Below, one piece after another: positions 39,001 to 57,000 of a DNA stretch of 64,000 bases. The stretch covers positions 11,250 through 75,249 of the forward strand of contig JBDHWW010000013.1 in assembly GCA_039810425.1 (NCBI GenBank). The letters are read 5' to 3'. Within the stretch, counting starts at the first letter, position 1, and each line of letters opens with the position of its first letter. Source of the stretch: Pseudobdellovibrionaceae bacterium. GTDB taxonomy: Bacteria; Bdellovibrionota; Bdellovibrionia; Bdellovibrionales; Bdellovibrionaceae. The position numbers are program-made.

Positions 39001-42000
39001 ATCAAATGCGCTGGAATCCACTTCCACTCCCTGCGGCTTCACAGGATTTCGTTGAAAGCTTGCGCACGGTTTGCGGTATCGGTTCTGCCATAGAGCAAAG
39101 GGGGTTGCATATTCACCTCTACGCCTTCAACAAAGTCATGGGCTCCCGTTACTTCATGGATGCGGACGGCGACATGATGTTTGTGCTGCAGTCAGGCTCT
39201 ATTCAGGTGAAAACTGAAATGGGGACCATTGATGCAGAGCCTGGTGAAATCGTTGTGGTTCCACGCGGTATGAGGTTTCAAGTAAATCCATTGTCCGCCG
39301 TTTGCCGCGGTTATGTTGGTGAAAACTTCGGTGCACCTTTCCGCTTGCCGGAATTGGGCCCCATTGGCGCAAATGGTCTTGCACATCCTCGGCACTTTGA
39401 AACTCCCCAAGCCGCCTTTGAGGATATCGAAGGCAAGATGGAGATTGTCGGTAAATTCTCTGATCGGCTGTGGAGCGCGGAGATGAACCATTCGCCCCTG
39501 GATGTTGTTGCTTGGCACGGGAACTATGTGCCATTCAAGTACGATCTTCGTAAATTCAATACCATCAACACGGTGAGCTTTGACCATCCGGATCCTTCGA
39601 TCTTTACCGTACTGACTTCACCAAGTGATACGCAGGGAACGGCGAATGTGGACTTTGCGATCTTCCCGCCACGTTGGATGGTGGGTGAGCACACGTTCCG
39701 TCCACCATACTTCCACCGCAATTGCATGAGCGAATACATGGGCTTGATCTATGGTGTGTACGACGCAAAAACCAGCGGGGGTTTCGTTCCTGGTGGCGGC
39801 AGTCTTCATAACTTCTATTCGGCCCATGGGCCTGATGCTGACACTTTTGAGAATGCCAGCAGTGCGGATTTAAAGCCGCACAAGCTTGAAAACACTTTGG
39901 CTTTCATGTTTGAAAGTCGTGCGCCTTACCTGCTGACGGAATTTGCAATGCAGAAAGATTTCCTCCAAGAGGACTATCAAGACTGCTGGCAAGGCTTTAA
40001 AAAGAACTTCAAGTAATGTTAGCTTTCGAAACCGGCGACTCGCAGCAAAAGTATCTTTTGCAGGTTCATCAGTTCGTTACGGACTTTAAAGAGCCTGCAC
40101 CGTCTTTTCTGAACCTAGAAGAGATCGCTTATCTCGGCGCACTCACTAATGAAAAACGCAAAAACGAATATCTGCAGACACGTTTTGTACTGAAGAATCT
40201 TTTGGCGAAGTACATGGGGTTAGCTCCCAACGTCATTCAATTCAAAAAGGTCGGTGAGGGCAAGCCGGTTTTGATGAACCCCACTGTGCACCTCGATTTT
40301 AACTTATCCCACAGCGCCGACTACTTCGCGCTTGCGCTGTCAGAGAAGGGCGAAGTTGGTGTTGATATTGAAAAGATCCGTCAGCCTCAACATTTGACTC
40401 AGATCGCAGAGAAGTTCTTTTCAGCTTCAGAAACAGATTTGATTAAGCAGGAACCCGATCCCGCAAAGCAGACGGAGATCTTCGCCAAGTTCTGGTCCGG
40501 CAAAGAGGCCCTTGTGAAGGCTGTTGGCGGCGGTGTCTTTAAGAATGTTCACGAAGTTTTGGTCGATGAGACCCATTGGAAAATAAAAAGGCTTCCGTTG
40601 GAATTCGGAAGCCTTTCTGATTGGGATCTACAGTTTTTTGAAACCGTTCCCGGTTACACTTGCAGTGTTGCTTATAAAACTAGTGTAAGTTCTTAAACTT
40701 ATCGGTTACTTTTTTACTGATCGTCATAATCTTTTCACCTTCTTCCGCGTGCGAGCAACCAACGTGTGAAGGTGCTGCGCCAGAAAGAAGAACGCCACCC
40801 TGAGACTCGTTAGTGTAAGGGAAACGATCTGTCAAAGCCGCAATAGTTACTTTACGTTTTTCTATGCTTGCTTTCAAGTCTGCAATTGCAGCTCTTTCTG
40901 CAACTGCAGAAGACGGCAAGTAATTCAGCAATTGGCTTGCAACATCGCTTATGTCTTCATACAGTTTAAGAGCTTTTTTTGCACTTTCGTAAATATACCA
41001 GTTTCCTTCTTCTGTCGGAACGTACTTCAGAACACCATTTGAAGAGGCATCTTTCAAGATTGCTTCGATAGTGATTTCTTCAAGGAAGTAGTGCAAAAGC
41101 AAGGTGTCTTGAGCTTTTGCGAATCTTGCGAATGGCAAAGCGCTCTTTTGGCTTTTTTTGTTATCATCCAAAGACTCATCAGAAAAGATATTTTCAATGA
41201 TCGCTTTAGTAATAGAGTATTCTGCTCTAATACCCTCATCGTCATAACCTGTTTCATCTGCGCGAAGCATGAACAAGTGATGCATGAACTCATGCACAAG
41301 AGTCCATCTGTTTGTGTTTTCGCGAACGATGATAGCCGCGCCCTTATGAAGCGAAGGGAAAAGAGAAGAATCTTTCTTAGGTAAATAGAGACCCAAGATT
41401 ACCTGACCTTTTGGCAAATCTTTGTTTGAAGACTTCCATTTGTCAGAAATATCTGAAGGCATTGTTTGCGCGCCAGTGTAGAGGCTTGAAGAGCAGAGGT
41501 TTGTTGGAATCAATTCAGACTTATAGACAGTCGCGCCCGTCAAGTTAACGAAACGAAGAGTTTCATCAACACTGGATGTATATACAGCTGCCAAGTAGTT
41601 CAAGTTGAACTCTTTTTCGAAGTAAGTCCGAGCTGTTTTAGACGTACCTAAAGCACTATAATCAGCAGTCCCACCTTCCGTTAAAGTGAACTGACAGCTG
41701 AAAGTGTTCATCTCTTTTGGTGCCGTTAAATTTTTGCCGTCATCAGAGCCGCTAGAACAAGCGGCGACAGAACCCAAAACAAATCCTGTTACCAGAAATT
41801 TTCCCATAACCCCAGACATAGTGTCTCCTTTAATTTGGAAAAGGTTATAGCGAGAAACTGCCGAAAATTGTTATTTTTTAGCCTGGGCGAAACTTATACA
41901 GAAGTGGCAAATATTTATACAAAGTGAATTTTTTCTAAACGCAGGGATTCCGCGGGATTAGCGGTTCCACTTGAAGCCGATTTGGCCGCTGGCTCTCTCG

Positions 42001-54000: not shown

Positions 54001-57000
54001 AGGCTTAAGCGAATATCGACTGGCACGATGATGCCGCCAGCGAGTGGAATCCCAAAGAAACCGACAGAGTATTCAGGGCGAGATTTTGCCAGGATAAGAA
54101 CGCGGTCACCTTTTTGAAGGCCCAAAGAACTCAGCTTTTGTGCGAGTTTCTCGGCATGATGGCAAACATCACTGTAAGTCAGTGGAATCCATGTATGGTT
54201 TTCGGCAGTGCCTTGACGGCCGAAGAATGCCGGACGGGAAGCGTATCGTTCTGAGACGCTTTTTAAGAAGCTATAAATGTCTGTTTGCTCCGGCTTTGCC
54301 ATGACTTAGGTGTTTGCAAAGCCGGTTCCAGGTCGGCGGTGTCAAAACGGCAGTATTCGAGGTGGGCTCGCGTTCTAACCGTTTGCTGTAGATCCGCTAG
54401 ACATGTGTGGGCGCTTCTTGTCCTTGTTCCCGGCCTCTGCGAGCTTTCGCTAAGACATCCGATTCATCTTGTCCTCAAGAGCTCAGGAAGTTCTTGTTTT
54501 GTTCCTGGCCATCGTAAGATGGAGTTATTGATAAAGTCCCATGCCAAGAGGTATGGGATTCAACTTTATGAGGTTTCACTGAACTGGTCGCCTATCATGA
54601 GTTCAATGATTTAGAGGGGCGTGGGTTGCTGGTGAGAAAGAAGAAAACTCAACGCTCGGGATAATAGTGGCTGCGAGGCCCCGGTTCGGATCTCGCTTTA
54701 AAACGGAGAGGCTTGTTTCCGAGGAAGTAAGATCATCTGAGATCACATCAAACTTAGTGAGTGATGGGAATGTGTGCGTTGTTACCGGGACTGAGTCTAA
54801 AGAAAGCCCCGACATATGAGGCGACTCCGACAGATGCGAAGAAGCCTGCAGCGAAGCCAGCTACGAGCCAAAAAGCAGCCCAATAACTAAGACCAACGGC
54901 ATTTCAAGCGGGGCACAAGCGGTGGGTTCTTTGAGATACGGAAGGATTTGCACTGATCCGTCATTTTCAAACCAACGTTTTCAGCCTTCATCAGGATCAA
55001 TTCACCCTGAGAGTCCAAAACTCGTGTGTTGTCCTGTACTGAGTACGCCGACGTTGCGAGCAGAGTGCAGATAAACAAAGTTGCAGTGTATTTAAGCATT
55101 TGAGTCCTCACCTGTTACATGCTGGATGTATAGTATATCGGCAATTTATACCGAGACTAAAGTCCTTTTTGAAAACTTCTTATACGAAAATTAAAACATT
55201 CCCCGGTGTATCAGTTTGAGACTTTCTTTCTTAAAATGAGACTCGAATCACTTACGAAAAGGTTAGTCTTATGGTACAGTGACGTATGCTTTTTGAACTT
55301 GTGCTTACAAAATCATATATTTCACACACTCGTCTTCTAGACAGGGTGACAGTCTCTATTTCTTAAGTCGGCTCTTAAGCGGCCGACGCACGTGGTTTTT
55401 TTTACAACTTAGTTTTTTAACAACCAGGAGGTCTTTATGGCTATGGGTGAATCCATCTTAGTAACAGAACAAGATTTTGAACGATTGGCACTATTAATCC
55501 TGCATTCTCATGGGCCGAATGCTTCGGCCCTCGAGGAAGAGCTCGGTCGCGCAGAGGTGGTGAGTCAGAAAGAAATTCCCAATGACGTGGTCACCATGAA
55601 TTCCATCGTGACTTTTGTGGCCAAGGATACCGGCAAGGAATCAGAAATTAAGCTGGTGTTTCCAAAGGACGCAGATGTGACAAAAGGTCATGTTTCTGTG
55701 TTAGCGCCCGTTGGAATTGCGCTGATTGGACTACGCGTGGGGCAGAGCATTGATTGGCCGATGCCGAACGGTCAATCGCGTCAATTGACGGTTACAGGAA
55801 TTAAGTATCAGCCAGAAGCTTCTGGTGATTGGGAGCTCTAAAAGCATTCATAAGAATTTCTTATAGATGGATAAAAATCAATCAATTGGCCAGCCGGGCG
55901 AAGATCCTGATATTTATTTTTTCAGGTTCTCCTCTTCGCCCGCACCAGTTCAGGGTGGGCGCCACTAAAATCAAGCGCAGATCGCGCATTCCCACATCCC
56001 ACCATAAAATCCCACCTTCGGAGAACTCCGCGCATTTGGGTCCAATTAAGTGGGTCGGGGCATTTCCAAAAAAACTAGTTCTTCAGTTTCCAGTCTTTTT
56101 CGGTGATGAGTCGGGAACCACGTTTTGAAAACAGATAATTCCAGGCCCATTGGGTCAGAACAGAAACGCGATTCTTGAAATCAATCAAATAGAAAATATG
56201 CACAAAGAGCCACGCCAGCCACGCAATATAACCGGTCATCTTCAAGTGGCCAGACAATGCAATTGCCCGGCGCTTGCCGATGGTTGCCATCTGGCCTTTA
56301 TCAAAATATGCGAACTCTTCGTGGGGGCTGTTTTTAAGGTCTCTGAGAATAGCTTCTGCGACAAAGTGGCCGGCTTGAATGGCTACGGGAGCAAGGCCTG
56401 GCAGCATTTTTCCAGGTGAATATTCGAACGCTGCCATGTCGCCGATGACGAAAACTTCGGGATGCCCCTTTAAAGTAAAGTCTTTGCCGACAAGGACACG
56501 GCCCGCGCGGTCTTTGGATCAATACGACGGAAATCTTTTACCAGAACGGTACGACTGATATCGGCAATAGCACCGGCGAGTTCGACTCCGGTTGGTCCCG
56601 CACCGACGACGACAAATGTTAGCAGGCTTTTGGTGCTTGCGATATCAAGAGCGTTCTCTGCTTGCTCAAAAGCTGCAAGAATACGGCGGCGGATCTCGGT
56701 GGCTTGTTCCAAGGTTTTCAGGCCCGGCGCAAAATCTTCCCAATCATTGCGGCCGAAGTAACTGTGTTGGGCGCCGCAAGCTAAGACAAGATAATCATAG
56801 GCCATCTCGACGGGCTCATCTTTCACCGTGGTGAGGATTGACTTCTTGTTGAGATTTACGCCGGTGATGCGGCCGAGATGGACTTCGATGTTGGAGGTAT
56901 TTGGAAACTGCGCCCGGATCGGGACCGCGATATCCGCGGGATTTAATCCGGCCGTGGCAACTTGATATAAGAGTGGTTGAAACAAGTGATGATTGCGTTG

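Follow-up and report, generated by a model that had tools for sequence, protein, structure and literature searches.

A recurrent gene cassette that seems to use small carrier proteins to make an oxidised lipid from an amino acid

Introduction

For the lit cluster, which is responsible for lipothrenin, the excerpted published account lists the KAS III LitB, the fatty acyl-AMP ligase (FAAL) LitD, the R2-like di-iron protein LitE and the ACP LitF, together with an 85-aa hypothetical protein LitK and an essential 311-aa hypothetical protein LitL; the AurF-like LitN is needed for N-hydroxylation (PMC10616846). According to an excerpt of a second study, AurF-like enzymes of the CylC/NocO type also carry the HxxDExxH motif, and their substrates are fatty acyl chains that a FAAL has attached to an ACP. 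The same excerpt gives QExxH as the first motif of the halogenases and describes a 3-His/4-carboxylate set as largely unique to N-oxygenases (PMC12101540).

Here we describe a locus in a window of 64,000 nucleotides, the whole stretch of contig JBDHWW010000013.1 that was analysed, from a Pseudobdellovibrionaceae bacterium. Its gene set seems to dispense with the usual giant peptide synthetases and to build, on small carrier proteins, an oxidised lipid derived from an amino acid. No description of the cassette or its product was found in the literature searched.

Results and Discussion

ORF calling combined with Pfam and NCBIfam searches confirmed 16 of the 16 genes listed in the survey's finding at 40016-54302, each at its place and in its family (Table 1). 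The 14 genes from 54302 down to 41958 overlap or are separated by at most 9 nt according to the ORF coordinates and are therefore considered one operon. After a gap of 138 nt the OM418 gene is followed by that of the 379-aa lipoprotein, a doubtful member of the gene set. This protein gave no match in Pfam and NCBIfam searches and Atlas scores of at most 0.87, and it stands beside the cassette in no other fetched locus.

Table 1. Genes of the locus, given in window positions.
Feature	Position	Strand	Assignment based on
ANL-family acyl ligase, 550 aa	52650..54302	-	Pfam AMP-binding + AMP-binding_C
ICMT/PEMT-type integral-membrane methyltransferase, 187 aa	52090..52653	-	Pfam ICMT
KAS III-like enzyme, 316 aa	51137..52087	-	Pfam ACP_syn_III + ACP_syn_III_C
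AurF/CmlI-type ferritin-like di-iron oxygenase, 287 aa	50272..51135	-	Pfam AurF
CP84, carrier-like, 84 aa	50021..50275	-	hhalign to ACP75 family, invariant S41
Amino acid:[carrier protein] ligase homologue (aaCPL), 290 aa	49152..50024	-	Pfam tRNA-synt_2b, NF005479, Bll0957
Thioester reductase-type SDR (TR), 363 aa	48068..49159	-	Pfam NAD_binding_4, TIGR01746
Ferr190, ferritin-like di-iron protein, 190 aa	47496..48068	-	Ligand residues, AF2 fold
ACP75, acyl carrier protein	47259..47486	-	Pfam PP-binding 35.5 bits
LolD/MacB-type ABC ATPase, accessory exporter	46567..47250	-	Pfam ABC_tran, TIGR02211
FtsX-family permease, 433 aa	45269..46570	-	Pfam FtsX 72.2 bits
LolA-like periplasmic protein, 249 aa	44520..45269	-	Pfam LolA_like 112.5 bits
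FtsX-family permease, 438 aa	43207..44523	-	Pfam FtsX 62.5 bits
OM418, secreted, 418 aa, probable outer-membrane barrel, last operon gene	41958..43214	-	Atlas leads
Lipoprotein with HExxH motif, 379 aa	40680..41819	-	Membership doubtful
Sfp-type 4'-phosphopantetheinyl transferase (PPTase)	40016..40696	+	Pfam ACPS 73.1 bits + AASDHPPT_N

The cassette consists of ten collinear genes (ANL, ICMT, KAS III, AurF, CP84, aaCPL, TR, PPTase, Ferr190 and ACP75). Among 111 non-redundant loci taken from other genomes, 106 share their order, ANL-ICMT-KAS3-AurF-CP84-aaCPL-TR-(PPT)-Ferr190-ACP75, so that the grouping is far beyond chance. For this set, 75 loci were fetched with the aaCPL itself as bait and others with Ferr190, and 15 loci repeating a contig were removed. 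By record title the hosts represent about a dozen phyla (among them Bdellovibrionota, Acidobacteriota, Pseudomonadota, Nitrospirota, Omnitrophota, Cyanobacteria and Melainabacteria, Marinimicrobia, Bacteroidota, Myxococcota, Planctomycetota and Actinomycetota), with cultured Streptomyces and cyanobacteria represented; Planktothrix has the same gene order at 32-61% identity. The recurrence of the core outside the Bdellovibrionales, which had been noted before, is thereby borne out. In 27 loci of the set fetched first, the PPTase gene sits between those of TR and Ferr190 and so belongs to the cassette; in the present locus the export block lies as an insertion between the genes of ACP75 and the PPTase. 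With a probability of roughly 0.5 we read the cassette as a horizontally spread, NRPS-independent assembly line on two free-standing carriers, primed by its own Sfp-type PPTase. The survey's proposal of an NRPS-independent pathway is supported in this form.

The aaCPL has a class II, SerRS-like core without the tRNA-binding domain. It scores 139.7 bits against NF005479, under the equivalog cut-off of 357 (NCBIfam), matches the Bll0957 structure 3mey in a PDB search (E 2e-30) and keeps C118, E146 and C259 invariant in 26 sequences. Among 93 loci holding both AurF and TR, 83 contain the aaCPL, a number biased by the aaCPL-baited loci, and 10 do not; these exceptions came from the unbiased Ferr190-baited set. 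A stand-alone, DltA-like NRPS adenylation domain occurs in 8 of these 10 loci and in none of the 83. Such domains reach 317.2-337.1 bits with TIGR01733 (cut-off 317.4), with DltA as next best family, and keep the Asp of the A4 motif (FDLS). Because an adenylation domain stands in where the aaCPL is missing, an amino acid on CP84 is supported, and the aaCPL probably loads it, as had been suggested for this aaRS-like ligase.

The CP84 gene lies directly upstream of the aaCPL gene with an overlap of 4 nt. None of the 18 family members has a Pfam match; hhalign gave a weak match to the ACP75 family (E 0.0011) in which S41 is aligned on the ACP serine. On the basis of this match and the adjacency CP84 is a probable carrier, with S41, the invariant serine in 'RILSSLHV', as its probable phosphopantetheine site. 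The C-terminal D-S motif, formerly taken as carrier-like, is not conserved.

The AurF-like protein scores 104.2 bits with Pfam AurF (gathering cut-off 29.6). Its candidate ligands E80, E110, H113, E158, H184, E188 and H191 are invariant in 30 sequences and comprise the HxxDExxH motif and the 3-His/4-carboxylate set. The AF2 model (pLDDT 93.3) comes closest in fold to CmlI (Z 21.4) and AurF (Z 20.7), followed by R2 at 16.6. Ligand motif and predicted fold support an enzyme of the N-oxygenase type, in agreement with the N-oxygenation suggested earlier. Of 30 paralogue loci sampled in Streptomyces, 16 have an AurF-like gene as the immediate neighbour of an aaCPL-like gene; these 16 are devoid of Ferr190 and TR.

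Alternatively, the fatty chain could be the substrate. The AurF-like protein would then be a CylC-type halogenase, hydroxylase or desaturase acting on acyl-ACP75, with the amino acid only as head group, and the reductase and the ADO-like protein would turn the acyl thioester into a hydrocarbon-like tail. CylC-type halogenases do share HxxDExxH and act on acyl-ACPs, as far as the excerpt goes (PMC12101540), and a sequence profile search ranks R2-like proteins and ADO ahead of AurF (E 0.53) and CmlI (E 0.19). By fold, however, CmlI/AurF are nearest by 4-5 Z units, and the first motif, E109-E110xxH113, is acidic like the DExxH of AurF and differs from the halogenase QExxH in that excerpt (PMC12101540). 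Moreover, in the 16 Streptomyces loci mentioned the AurF-like gene accompanies an aaCPL-like gene and not ANL or ACP. We consider this alternative improbable.

TR matches Pfam NAD_binding_4 (112.9 bits) and TIGR01746 (93.9 bits, below the cut-off of 213), has the motifs GATGYIG (8-14) and Y154xxxK158, and finds its nearest solved relatives in NRPS/PKS terminal reductase domains (6vtj, 8v1x, MxaA, AusA). In the fetched loci its gene is always within two genes of that of Ferr190, the best conserved cassette protein (52-92% identity across phyla), in which E21, E51xxH54, E101 and E132xxH135 are invariant. For the AF2 model of Ferr190 (pLDDT 89.9) VIA-align ranked 5ux2_B, which has ADO activity, first (Z 18.2), followed by 3ez0 (18.0), 8fhc (17.0), 5uwz (16.6) and ferritins at about 14. 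The best Foldseek match was the ADO 5k52 (E 4.9e-3). The predicted fold thus resembles that of an aldehyde-deformylating oxygenase (ADO), a likeness at fold level only (14-23% identity, Pfam Ald_deCOase not matched). The ferritin-like nature of this second di-iron protein had been recognised before, whereas the ADO likeness and the reductase neighbourhood had been missed. Both the proximity to proteins with ADO activity and the pairing with a reductase, which mimics cyanobacterial AAR-ADO (6jzu is also among the Foldseek matches), would fit a hydrocarbon-like tail as well.

On the acyl side, the ANL ligase scores 208 bits with Pfam AMP-binding; its best NCBIfam family is the long-chain-fatty-acid--CoA ligase PRK06187 (262.5 bits, below the cut-off of 476). 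Its earlier naming as a FAAL is not confirmed: its closest solved relatives are the acyl-CoA ligases FadD13 (2.5e-44) and MatB-type malonyl-CoA synthetase (3.5e-43). FadD10, which we take to be of FAAL type and the sole such entry recognised among the PDB matches, reaches only 3.6e-25. The ANL ligase is the probable loader of ACP75, whose serine S35 (DSF motif) is conserved in 25 sequences. With 22-25% identity, orthology of the ANL ligase is only weakly supported in actinomycetes. In almost all loci its gene adjoins that of the ICMT-type protein. The ICMT-type protein (Pfam ICMT E 1.1e-6; NCBIfam isopcys_mtase 57.1 bits, below the cut-off of 160) was detected in 66 of 111 loci. In locus L033 a single 1022-aa frame joins it to an MMPL/HAE3 exporter as a fusion, and equivalent long frames occur in L034, L035 and L040.

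The KAS III-like enzyme has C128, Q241 and H272 where FabH has Cys, His and Asn, all three invariant in 34 of 34 orthologues; in the alignment with Aquifex FabH (2ebd) IPHQAN is replaced by IPQNTN and GNTSAAS by GHIISSD. FabH uses the His/Asn pair for malonyl decarboxylation, and the pair is needed for chain initiation. The KAS III reported earlier thus keeps its family and its cysteine but is not a canonical condensing FabH. This observation bears on a route like that to lipothrenin, in which the role of the KAS III is limited to priming or choosing the fatty chain and an N-acyl amino acid (or the aldehyde/alcohol) is hydroxylated late at the amide nitrogen by the AurF-like enzyme, giving a metal-binding hydroxamate lipid. 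According to the excerpted account the lit cluster pairs KAS III, FAAL, R2-like di-iron protein and ACP with the AurF-like LitN (PMC10616846), and by size only, LitK (85 aa) is like CP84 (84 aa) and LitL (311 aa) equals the Streptomyces aaCPL frame (L123). Without the His/Asn pair needed for chain initiation, a plain FabH role is argued against. In addition, the 30 sampled Streptomyces loci included no lit-like locus, and thioester reductase, ICMT and Ferr190 are all missing from the lit cluster of the excerpted account. Such a route appears unlikely.

Within the export block the ABC ATPase scores 128.9 bits with Pfam ABC_tran and 242.1 bits with TIGR02211 LolD (below the cut-off of 307.75), and the 433-aa FtsX permease 30.1 bits with lolCE, far under the cut-off of 362. 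For OM418 a Pfam search gave no match, and its nearest Atlas clusters ('alginate export domain', DUF1302, porin) are leads only. OM418 accompanies the ABC/FtsX/LolA set in five loci (L007, L012, L036, L079, L080). Of the 182 genomes of the family, 73 contain OM418 and 7 the cassette. Possibly the ABC/FtsX/LolA-like/OM418 block is a separate envelope transport system that landed in the operon and does not carry the cassette product. It is not beside the cassette in L001 and L002, nor in Bdellovibrio sp. HCB337, where about 478 kb separate the two; in most other phyla such a block is missing from the surrounding 8-10 kb, and of the 175 family genomes without the cassette, 66 contain OM418. On the other hand, OM418 is present in 7 of 7 cassette-bearing family genomes, although these kin are not independent. 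Here and in the genome G081 the block also shares one tight operon with the cassette, and FtsX/LolA adjoin the cassette in 12 of 106 loci, from several Bdellovibrionota families and in more than one arrangement. In other lineages this place is taken by MMPL, a lipid exporter of another kind (19 of 106 loci). An independent transporter is thus a tentative reading that we hold to be rather doubtful. The LolA-like gene follows the cassette in Bdellovibrionota loci only; the Lol-like exporter, formerly regarded as a part of the cluster, lies outside the conserved core and is a lineage-specific add-on, other lineages using MMPL. As the cassette adjoins two unrelated kinds of lipid-type exporters across lineages, a hydrophobic, exported product is plausible, in line with the lipid export proposed before.

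From the genes, families, conserved order, residues and replacement patterns observed we infer every chemical step of the assembly line. The SerRS-like aaCPL would adenylate a small, glycine- or alanine-like amino acid and load it onto CP84 (family and gene replacement), where the AurF/CmlI-type enzyme may oxygenate the tethered amino group to a hydroxylamine, nitroso or nitro/nitronate function (fold, ligands and recurring adjacency). The ANL ligase would charge ACP75 with a carboxylic acid, probably a fatty acid. With its acyl-accepting cysteine kept and the FabH His/Asn pair lost, the KAS III-like enzyme could couple the acyl unit with the modified aminoacyl unit without decarboxylation. 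TR would then free the product as an aldehyde, which the neighbouring ADO-like Ferr190 might oxidise or deformylate, and the ICMT-type enzyme would methylate an acidic lipid oxygen at the membrane. Finally, a lipid exporter, here the ABC/FtsX/LolA-like/outer-membrane-barrel set, would remove the product. Taken jointly, these steps have an even chance of being correct, and the survey's interpretation of the pathway is partly supported.

Comparison with Known Systems

The analogy with ham/fragin drawn in the survey holds as a functional likeness only. Closer published comparators of the cassette are lipothrenin (PMC10616846) and the nitronate pathway that starts from glycine, as papers citing He & Ryan (2021) describe it.

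Results and Discussion

ORF calling together with Pfam and NCBIfam scans bore out the gene list that the survey's finding had drawn up for positions 40016–54302, a region read there as an NRPS-free lipo-amino-acid cluster with a Lol-like exporter. From 54302 down to 41958 adjacent genes overlap or lie at most 9 nt apart, for which reason these 14 genes are read as one operon. A sequence scan of 39800–55600 gave 16 promoter-like sites compared to 18.4 expected, and 26 terminator-like sites compared to 17.2, figures that are uninformative. The nine genes from ANL to ACP75 together with the PPTase gene are called the cassette in the following.

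Genes of the cassette, the export block and their surroundings in the window, with the short names used in the text
Feature	Position	Strand	Family evidence
Homogentisate 1,2-dioxygenase (hmgA)	38709–40016		
Sfp-type 4'-phosphopantetheinyl transferase (PPTase)	40016–40696	plus, convergent	ACPS 73.1 bits; AASDHPPT_N 32.9 bits
379-aa lipoprotein without family	40680–41819	minus	HExxH motif (LVHEFMHH)
Probable outer-membrane barrel without family, 418 aa (OM418)	41958–43214	minus	
ABC ATPase, two FtsX permeases, LolA_like protein	43207–47250	minus	
Acyl carrier protein (ACP75)	47259–47486	minus	
190-aa ferritin-like di-iron protein (Ferr190)	47496–48068	minus	
Thioester-reductase-like SDR (TR)	48068–49159	minus	NAD_binding_4
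Amino acid:[carrier protein] ligase homologue, 290 aa (aaCPL)		minus	tRNA-synt_2b; best NCBIfam model 'amino acid--[acyl-carrier-protein] ligase' NF005479, 139.7 bits (cut-off 357)
84-aa carrier-like protein (CP84)	50021–50275	minus	
AurF-family protein	50272–51135	minus	PF11583 104.2 bits (gathering score 29.6)
KAS III-like enzyme (KAS3)	51137–52087	minus	ACP_syn_III 36 bits; ACP_syn_III_C 53.5 bits
ICMT-type membrane methyltransferase (ICMT)	52090–52653	minus	
AMP-binding acyl ligase (ANL)	52650–54302	minus	
Rnk-type regulator (rnk)	55437–55841		
Pyr_redox_2 protein, 237 aa	56470–57183	minus	covers profile positions 4–177 of 291
Non-discriminating aspartate--tRNA(Asn) ligase	57249–58577		

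The 379-aa lipoprotein matched no family and is not found beside the cassette in the other loci examined; atlas look-ups for it and for OM418 yielded leads only. Further out, the Pyr_redox_2 protein, which may be truncated judging from its profile coverage, adjoins the aspartate--tRNA(Asn) ligase.

In tblastn searches with the window proteins the nine genes from ANL to ACP75 were found collinear in two further Bdellovibrionota and, in the same order and with 32–61% identity, in a Planktothrix MAG. Among the cassette proteins conservation is highest for Ferr190, with 61% identity between Bdellovibrio and Planktothrix. Judging from related loci the window belongs to a Bdellovibrio; its ligase is 89% identical to the counterpart in Bdellovibrio sp. 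HCB337. Ferr190 as bait retrieved 47 loci with 52–92% identity. An alignment of aaCPL matched at least 600 stretches, and the best 80 of the 582 relatives among the matches listed were kept. After removal of 15 loci that repeated a contig, 111 loci were left, 106 of which carry the core (tblastn with chosen queries). With thresholds of E≤1e-8 and coverage >35%, tblastn detected TR in 101 of the 111 loci, AurF in 98, aaCPL in 96, Ferr190 in 95, KAS3 in 93, CP84 in 84, ACP75 in 82, ICMT in 66 and ANL in 61. These counts are to be read with the truncation of many loci at contig ends in mind, and with the lower detection rate for short or divergent proteins. The PPTase gene usually lies between TR and Ferr190 (27 loci of the first set), and the PPTase of the window is therefore regarded as part of the cassette.

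According to record titles the hosts comprise Bdellovibrionota, Acidobacteriota, Alpha-, Beta- and Gammaproteobacteria, Nitrospirota, Omnitrophota, Melainabacteria, Cyanobacteria (Planktothrix, Nostoc, Stigonema), Marinimicrobia, Bacteroidota, Myxococcota, Planctomycetota and Actinomycetota, the latter with the cultured Streptomyces bohaiensis, S. silvisoli, Kineosporia mesophila, Catellatospora and Nocardia stercoris. Within the order of the window the cassette is rare, with Ferr190 in 7 of 384 genomes, 5 of 274 of good quality and 4 of 121 genera. The housekeeping genes hmgA and rnk that flank the cassette in the window were not found near it in L001 or L002, two of the loci fetched, so that the insertion sites differ between genomes. 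Rarity in its own order and differing flanks fit a horizontal spread of the cassette. No description of it was found in a literature search whose scope lay outside most subscription journals and MIBiG.

Some loci show peculiarities. In Streptomyces silvisoli (L123:640–5471) a TPP-dependent enzyme, a second KAS III-like gene and a PucR-type regulator lie upstream of the cassette, and PPTase and ACP share one 291-aa frame. Three gammaproteobacterial loci (L033, L041, L043) have an extra membrane fatty-acid desaturase (PF00487), a Metal_hydrol protein (PF10118) and a BASS-family transporter downstream of the ACP. The Ferr190 orthologue of one related genome (G063:C28:51913–52467) contains an in-frame TAA and may be a pseudogene or reflect a sequencing error.

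The strongest evidence for an amino-acid arm is a replacement pattern. AurF and TR occur together in 93 loci, with aaCPL present in 83 and absent in 10. A stand-alone NRPS-type adenylation domain is encoded elsewhere in the locus in 8 of these 10 (Oligoflexus L027, L030 and L031; gammaproteobacterial L033, L034, L035, L040 and L041), compared to none of the 83 loci with aaCPL; the remaining two, L022 and L042, lie on contigs of 6.4 and 8.8 kb. In reading these numbers it has to be considered that 75 loci were baited with aaCPL itself and that all 10 loci lacking it come from the Ferr190-baited set. Four of the adenylation domains were scanned and scored 317.2–337.1 bits with TIGR01733 (cut-off 317.4), the next best models being DltA. 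They retain the aspartate of the A4 motif 'FDLS' and the cysteine of 'FCGE', as we presume these positions are to be read. As an adenylation domain takes the place of aaCPL, the loader of CP84 is expected to be an amino-acid-activating enzyme.

The domain content of aaCPL itself, tRNA-synt_2b at residues 112–275 and no further Pfam domain, corresponds to a class II core without tRNA-binding domain. Residues 43–285 match the solved amino acid:[carrier protein] ligase Bll0957 (3mey_A, E 2e-30), and C118, E146 and C259, which we take to be the zinc ligands (Cys/Glu/Cys), align with PAACY, CFRRE and GCVAFG of Bll0957 and are invariant in 26 orthologues. Since the protein stays below the equivalog cut-off of NF005479, its sequence places it in a distinct subfamily within the ligase superfamily. 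Its adjacency to CP84 makes carrier aminoacylation a candidate function. By analogy the substrate is probably a small amino acid, since known ligases of this kind accept Gly or Ala according to PMC5370406.

A Pfam carrier (PP-binding) match was obtained for none of 18 CP84 family members at E≤1. A weak profile–profile match to ACP75 (hhalign E 0.0011, 60 columns), in which the invariant S41 of CP84 lies opposite the ACP serine, keeps alive the suggestion that CP84 functions like a carrier protein. Complex prediction for aaCPL and CP84 scored 0.01 compared to a mark of 0.32, which is no answer and speaks neither for nor against pairing. The phosphopantetheine site had earlier been placed at a D-S near the C-terminus of CP84; this site was rejected, as the position varies between S, T, V and A among orthologues.

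The AurF-like protein scores well above the gathering score of PF11583. A phmmer search of PDB sequences found nothing for it, and its family profile matched CmlI (E 0.19) and AurF (E 0.53) weakly, with R2-like proteins and ADO ranking better. Di-iron chemistry directed at the acyl chain, as for CylC or ADO, is a reading that we consider improbable next to the ligands and the fold. Thirty orthologues retain E80, E110xxH113, E158 and H184xxD187-E188xxH191, the 3-His/4-carboxylate set with HxxDExxH that is described as a feature of the N-oxygenases AurF and CmlI in PMC12101540. The first motif, given there as QExxH for the halogenase variant, reads E-ExxH and is thus acidic like the DExxH of AurF. 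In addition, the AlphaFold model (pLDDT 93.3) has its closest folds in CmlI (Z 21.4, 266 aligned residues, rmsd 3.4) and AurF (Z 20.7, 278 aligned, rmsd 3.7), followed by an R2 protein with Z 16.6. Pfam family, ligand set and modelled fold agree with those of N-oxygenases, and oxygenation of an amine is predicted.

Pairing of both enzymes is not restricted to the cassette. Genes of the aaCPL family were found in 129 of 401 sampled Streptomyces genomes; only four hits are cassette orthologues (>320 bits), the others scoring 150–260 bits. Thirty paralogue loci around such hits were fetched (L127–L156). In 16 of them an AurF-like gene, 33–38% identical to that of the window, directly adjoins the ligase gene, and the other 14 gave no AurF-like match. 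Two annotated types of the paired loci (L127, L130, L154) add a PPTase, an ORF of about 80 aa and an LCM-family carboxyl methyltransferase, and one of the two types also a KAS III-like gene. From this recurrence we conclude that ligase, small carrier and AurF-like enzyme, optionally with PPTase and carboxyl-type methyltransferase, form a module of which the cassette of the window is one elaboration. The recurrent cluster of L127 (9194–13706) and L130 (8996–13468) contains an MFS transporter, a Cys/Met PLP enzyme, MaoC, the LCM and a second methyltransferase, the AurF-like and aaCPL-like genes, PPTase and an 82-aa ORF, then SAM synthetase, PfkB kinase and MetH. It may be an O-methyl-nitronate cluster of the enteromycin type. 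Among the 14 AurF-less loci a PPTase lies next door in six; the annotated example L138 also encodes a condensation-domain protein, DUF6271 and a PhyH dioxygenase.

On the acyl side, ANL had been named a fatty acyl-AMP ligase. Its assignment as AMP-binding ligase holds; the FAAL subtype is no more than a candidate, as the closest PDB relatives are acyl-CoA ligases, with FadD13 (2.5e-44), malonyl-CoA synthetase and 4CL at E 1e-44 to 1e-36. The FAAL-type FadD10 scores 3.6e-25. The catalytic triad of FabH is Cys-His-Asn. KAS3 carries both KAS III Pfam domains and keeps the cysteine (C128), but Q241 and H272 occupy the His and Asn positions in 34 of 34 orthologues (alignment to 2ebd). It can therefore only be called KAS III-like, and canonical, decarboxylating chain initiation of the FabH type was rejected. 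Acyl transfer or a non-decarboxylative condensation is the more likely role, judging from these residues.

The nearest solved relatives of TR are the terminal R domains of NRPS and PKS (6vtj, 2.1e-8; 8v1x, MxaA, AusA). Ferr190 contains the ligand set E/ExxH/E/ExxH, and its AlphaFold-type model (pLDDT 89.9) has its nearest folds with ADO activity in 5ux2_B (Z 18.2), 8fhc (17.0) and 5uwz (16.6); the top Foldseek match is ADO 5k52 (E 4.9e-3). The protein 3ez0, of unknown function, reaches Z 18.0 and plain ferritins about 14. At the sequence level, Pfam yielded only Rubrerythrin (26.3 bits) and DUF455 and no ADO family membership, and the profile found only designed di-iron bundles and symerythrin in the PDB. 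The likeness to ADO is at the level of the modelled fold only. Ferr190 forms a small separate family, with 346 members at E≤1e-3 and 49 at E≤1e-30 among 1.84 billion representatives. The position of TR beside it would recall, by analogy, the AAR-ADO pair.

A Lol-like export set is indeed present in the operon of the window; its membership in the conserved core did not hold. In L001 and L002 the PPTase directly follows the ACP, and the block of ABC, FtsX, LolA-like and OM418 genes is missing beside the cassette. In the genome concerned, that of Bdellovibrio sp. HCB337, this block lies about 478 kb from the cassette, whereas a further related genome (G081) has it in the arrangement of the window. 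Within the family OM418 occurs in 7 of 7 genomes with the cassette and 66 of 175 without, together 73 of 182; as kin these genomes are not independent. The exporter of the window may not be dedicated to the product of the cassette, and mere adjacency of this exporter, a somewhat unlikely explanation in our opinion, would concern the exporter alone. The scores of its genes stay below the Lol equivalog cut-offs (LolD 242.1 compared to 307.75, lolCE 54.2 and 30.1 compared to 362.45, LolA1 27 compared to 100), and the broad Pfam LolA_like is reached with 112.5 compared to 30.

Of the 106 core loci, 12 have FtsX/LolA genes beside the cassette, and these are without exception from Bdellovibrionota or Oligoflexia; 19 have an MMPL/HAE3 RND transporter there and come from actinomycetes, gammaproteobacteria, Nitrospira, Marinimicrobia and others. 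In L033 (1050–4118, minus strand) a 1022-aa frame fuses the ICMT domain (residues 64–186) to such a transporter, and L034, L035 and L040 hold equivalent frames of about 1020 aa. That either of two unrelated exporters of the lipid type takes the same position, and that the membrane methyltransferase can be fused to one of them, argues for a hydrophobic, exported product.

Altogether the interpretation of the survey is partly supported. In the proposed pathway aaCPL would load a small amino acid on CP84, and the AurF-type enzyme would oxygenate the nitrogen of the carrier-bound amino acid. ANL would load an acid on ACP75, and the KAS III-like enzyme could join both arms without decarboxylation. 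Release of an aldehyde by TR, its oxidation or deformylation by Ferr190 and methylation of an acidic oxygen by the ICMT-type enzyme would follow, and the exporter would ship the lipid. For this NRPS-free N-oxygenation of a carrier-tethered amino acid, combined with an acyl arm, a reductase/ADO-like pair and exporters, we estimate a probability of about 50% for the mechanism as a whole; what is observed directly are families, residues, gene order and replacements in the cassette, and from these we infer all of the chemistry.

In a more daring variant, for which we see only a slim chance, the altered KAS III would use a glycine-derived nitronate as its carbon nucleophile, and the carboxyl-type methyltransferase would cap it. 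The AurF-type enzyme would turn carrier-bound glycine (or alanine) into a nitroacetyl or nitronate thioester, which the KAS III-like enzyme would condense with a fatty acyl group or fatty aldehyde. TR and the ADO-like protein would trim the carboxyl carbon, and the membrane methyltransferase would cap the nitronate oxygen, giving a nitro- or O-methyl-nitronate lipid for export to the cell surface. As a nitronate is an already stabilised carbanion, decarboxylation would be unneeded, and this would explain why KAS3 keeps only the cysteine, with Gln and His at the His and Asn positions of FabH. If true, lipid biosynthesis would gain a new way to make C–C bonds, and amino acid:[carrier protein] ligases of a dozen phyla would for the first time have a biological role assigned to them.

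Comparison with Known Systems

Like Bll0957, Bll6282 and Atu2573 (Mocibob et al. 2010, 2013; PMC9437257, PMC5370406, PDB 3mey/4h2s), aaCPL consists of a truncated, SerRS-like class II core; a small carrier gene next door and the conserved Cys/Glu/Cys columns are shared with the Bll0957 type. Unlike Bll0957 and Atu2573, it belongs to a subfamily below the curated cut-off and sits with AurF, KAS III and reductase, none of which is named in the neighborhood that Aravind notes for the Bll0957 group (ACP, a Rossmann oxidoreductase, a glycosidase and LPS genes; PMC2922099). The biological role of these ligases was unknown as of a 2022 review (PMC9437257). Here they are tied to a defined pathway, adjoining AurF-type oxygenases in about a dozen phyla. 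The cassette brings together unusual enzymes: a KAS III without the decarboxylation residues, a small ADO-like di-iron protein as best conserved member, and a membrane methyltransferase that is sometimes fused to an MMPL exporter. Cultured carriers are at hand, such as Streptomyces silvisoli, Kineosporia mesophila and Catellatospora, and through them the product can be approached directly. Speculatively, an exported surface lipid could matter for envelope or prey interaction in predatory Bdellovibrio.

In the ham and pvf systems, which lead to fragin, valdiazen and pyrazine N-oxides, the N-oxygenase HamC or PvfB acts on an A-T-R NRPS. The analogy to ham drawn by the survey holds for the functional logic, which by comparison would combine a carrier-bound amino acid with an AurF-like N-oxygenase and release by reduction. 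It fails for the A-T-R partner, as Pfam finds no NRPS in the operon of the window and the A-T-R roles are split over three proteins, the aaRS-like aaCPL, CP84 and TR. Similarly, the cyanobacterial AAR-ADO pair shares an aldehyde-forming reductase adjoining a small ferritin-like di-iron protein, for which the model predicts an ADO-nearest fold; the reductase of the cassette is, however, an SDR of the NRPS R-domain type instead of AAR, and Ferr190 has 190 aa and only 14–23% identity to ADOs. With LolCDE-LolA and MacB exporters the window has in common a LolD-like ATPase, two FtsX/MacB-type permeases and a LolA_like periplasmic protein. Unlike LolCDE-LolA, this set includes an extra outer-membrane barrel and is linked to a biosynthetic operon.

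In the pathway of He and Ryan (2021) a di-iron oxygenase turns carrier-bound glycine into a nitronate and a methyltransferase O-methylates it, as described in the citing papers PMC9967187, PMC11035981 and PMC12154687; loading is by an NRPS according to a citing paper. The cassette has a predicted carrier-bound small amino acid, an AurF-type oxygenase and a carboxyl-type O-methyltransferase in common with this enteromycin-type pathway, in the description of which KAS III-like enzyme, reductase, ADO-like protein, second ACP and lipid exporter do not appear. The Streptomyces loci L127, L130 and L154 look like a bridge between both.

Among characterised lipo-amino acids with an AurF-like N-oxygenase, lipothrenin is the nearest. 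In PMC10616846 its lit cluster (Streptomyces aureus; GenBank ON169987) is described as NRPS-free, with KAS III, FAAL, ACP, an R2-like di-iron protein and an AurF-like N-oxygenase. An N-acyl hydroxamate of the lipothrenin type is nevertheless an unlikely product of the cassette; as far as described there, the lit cluster is without reductase, ICMT, Ferr190 and MMPL or Lol exporter and has a different gene order and a ThiF enzyme. The lit gene order was found in none of the 30 Streptomyces loci around aaCPL-family hits. According to Table 5 of that paper, LitK has 85 aa, and LitL, 311 aa, is essential, annotated as hypothetical and encoded in one operon with the AurF-like LitN. Compared by size alone, both match CP84 and aaCPL, and LitK and LitL may be an unrecognised pair of carrier and amino acid:[carrier protein] ligase.
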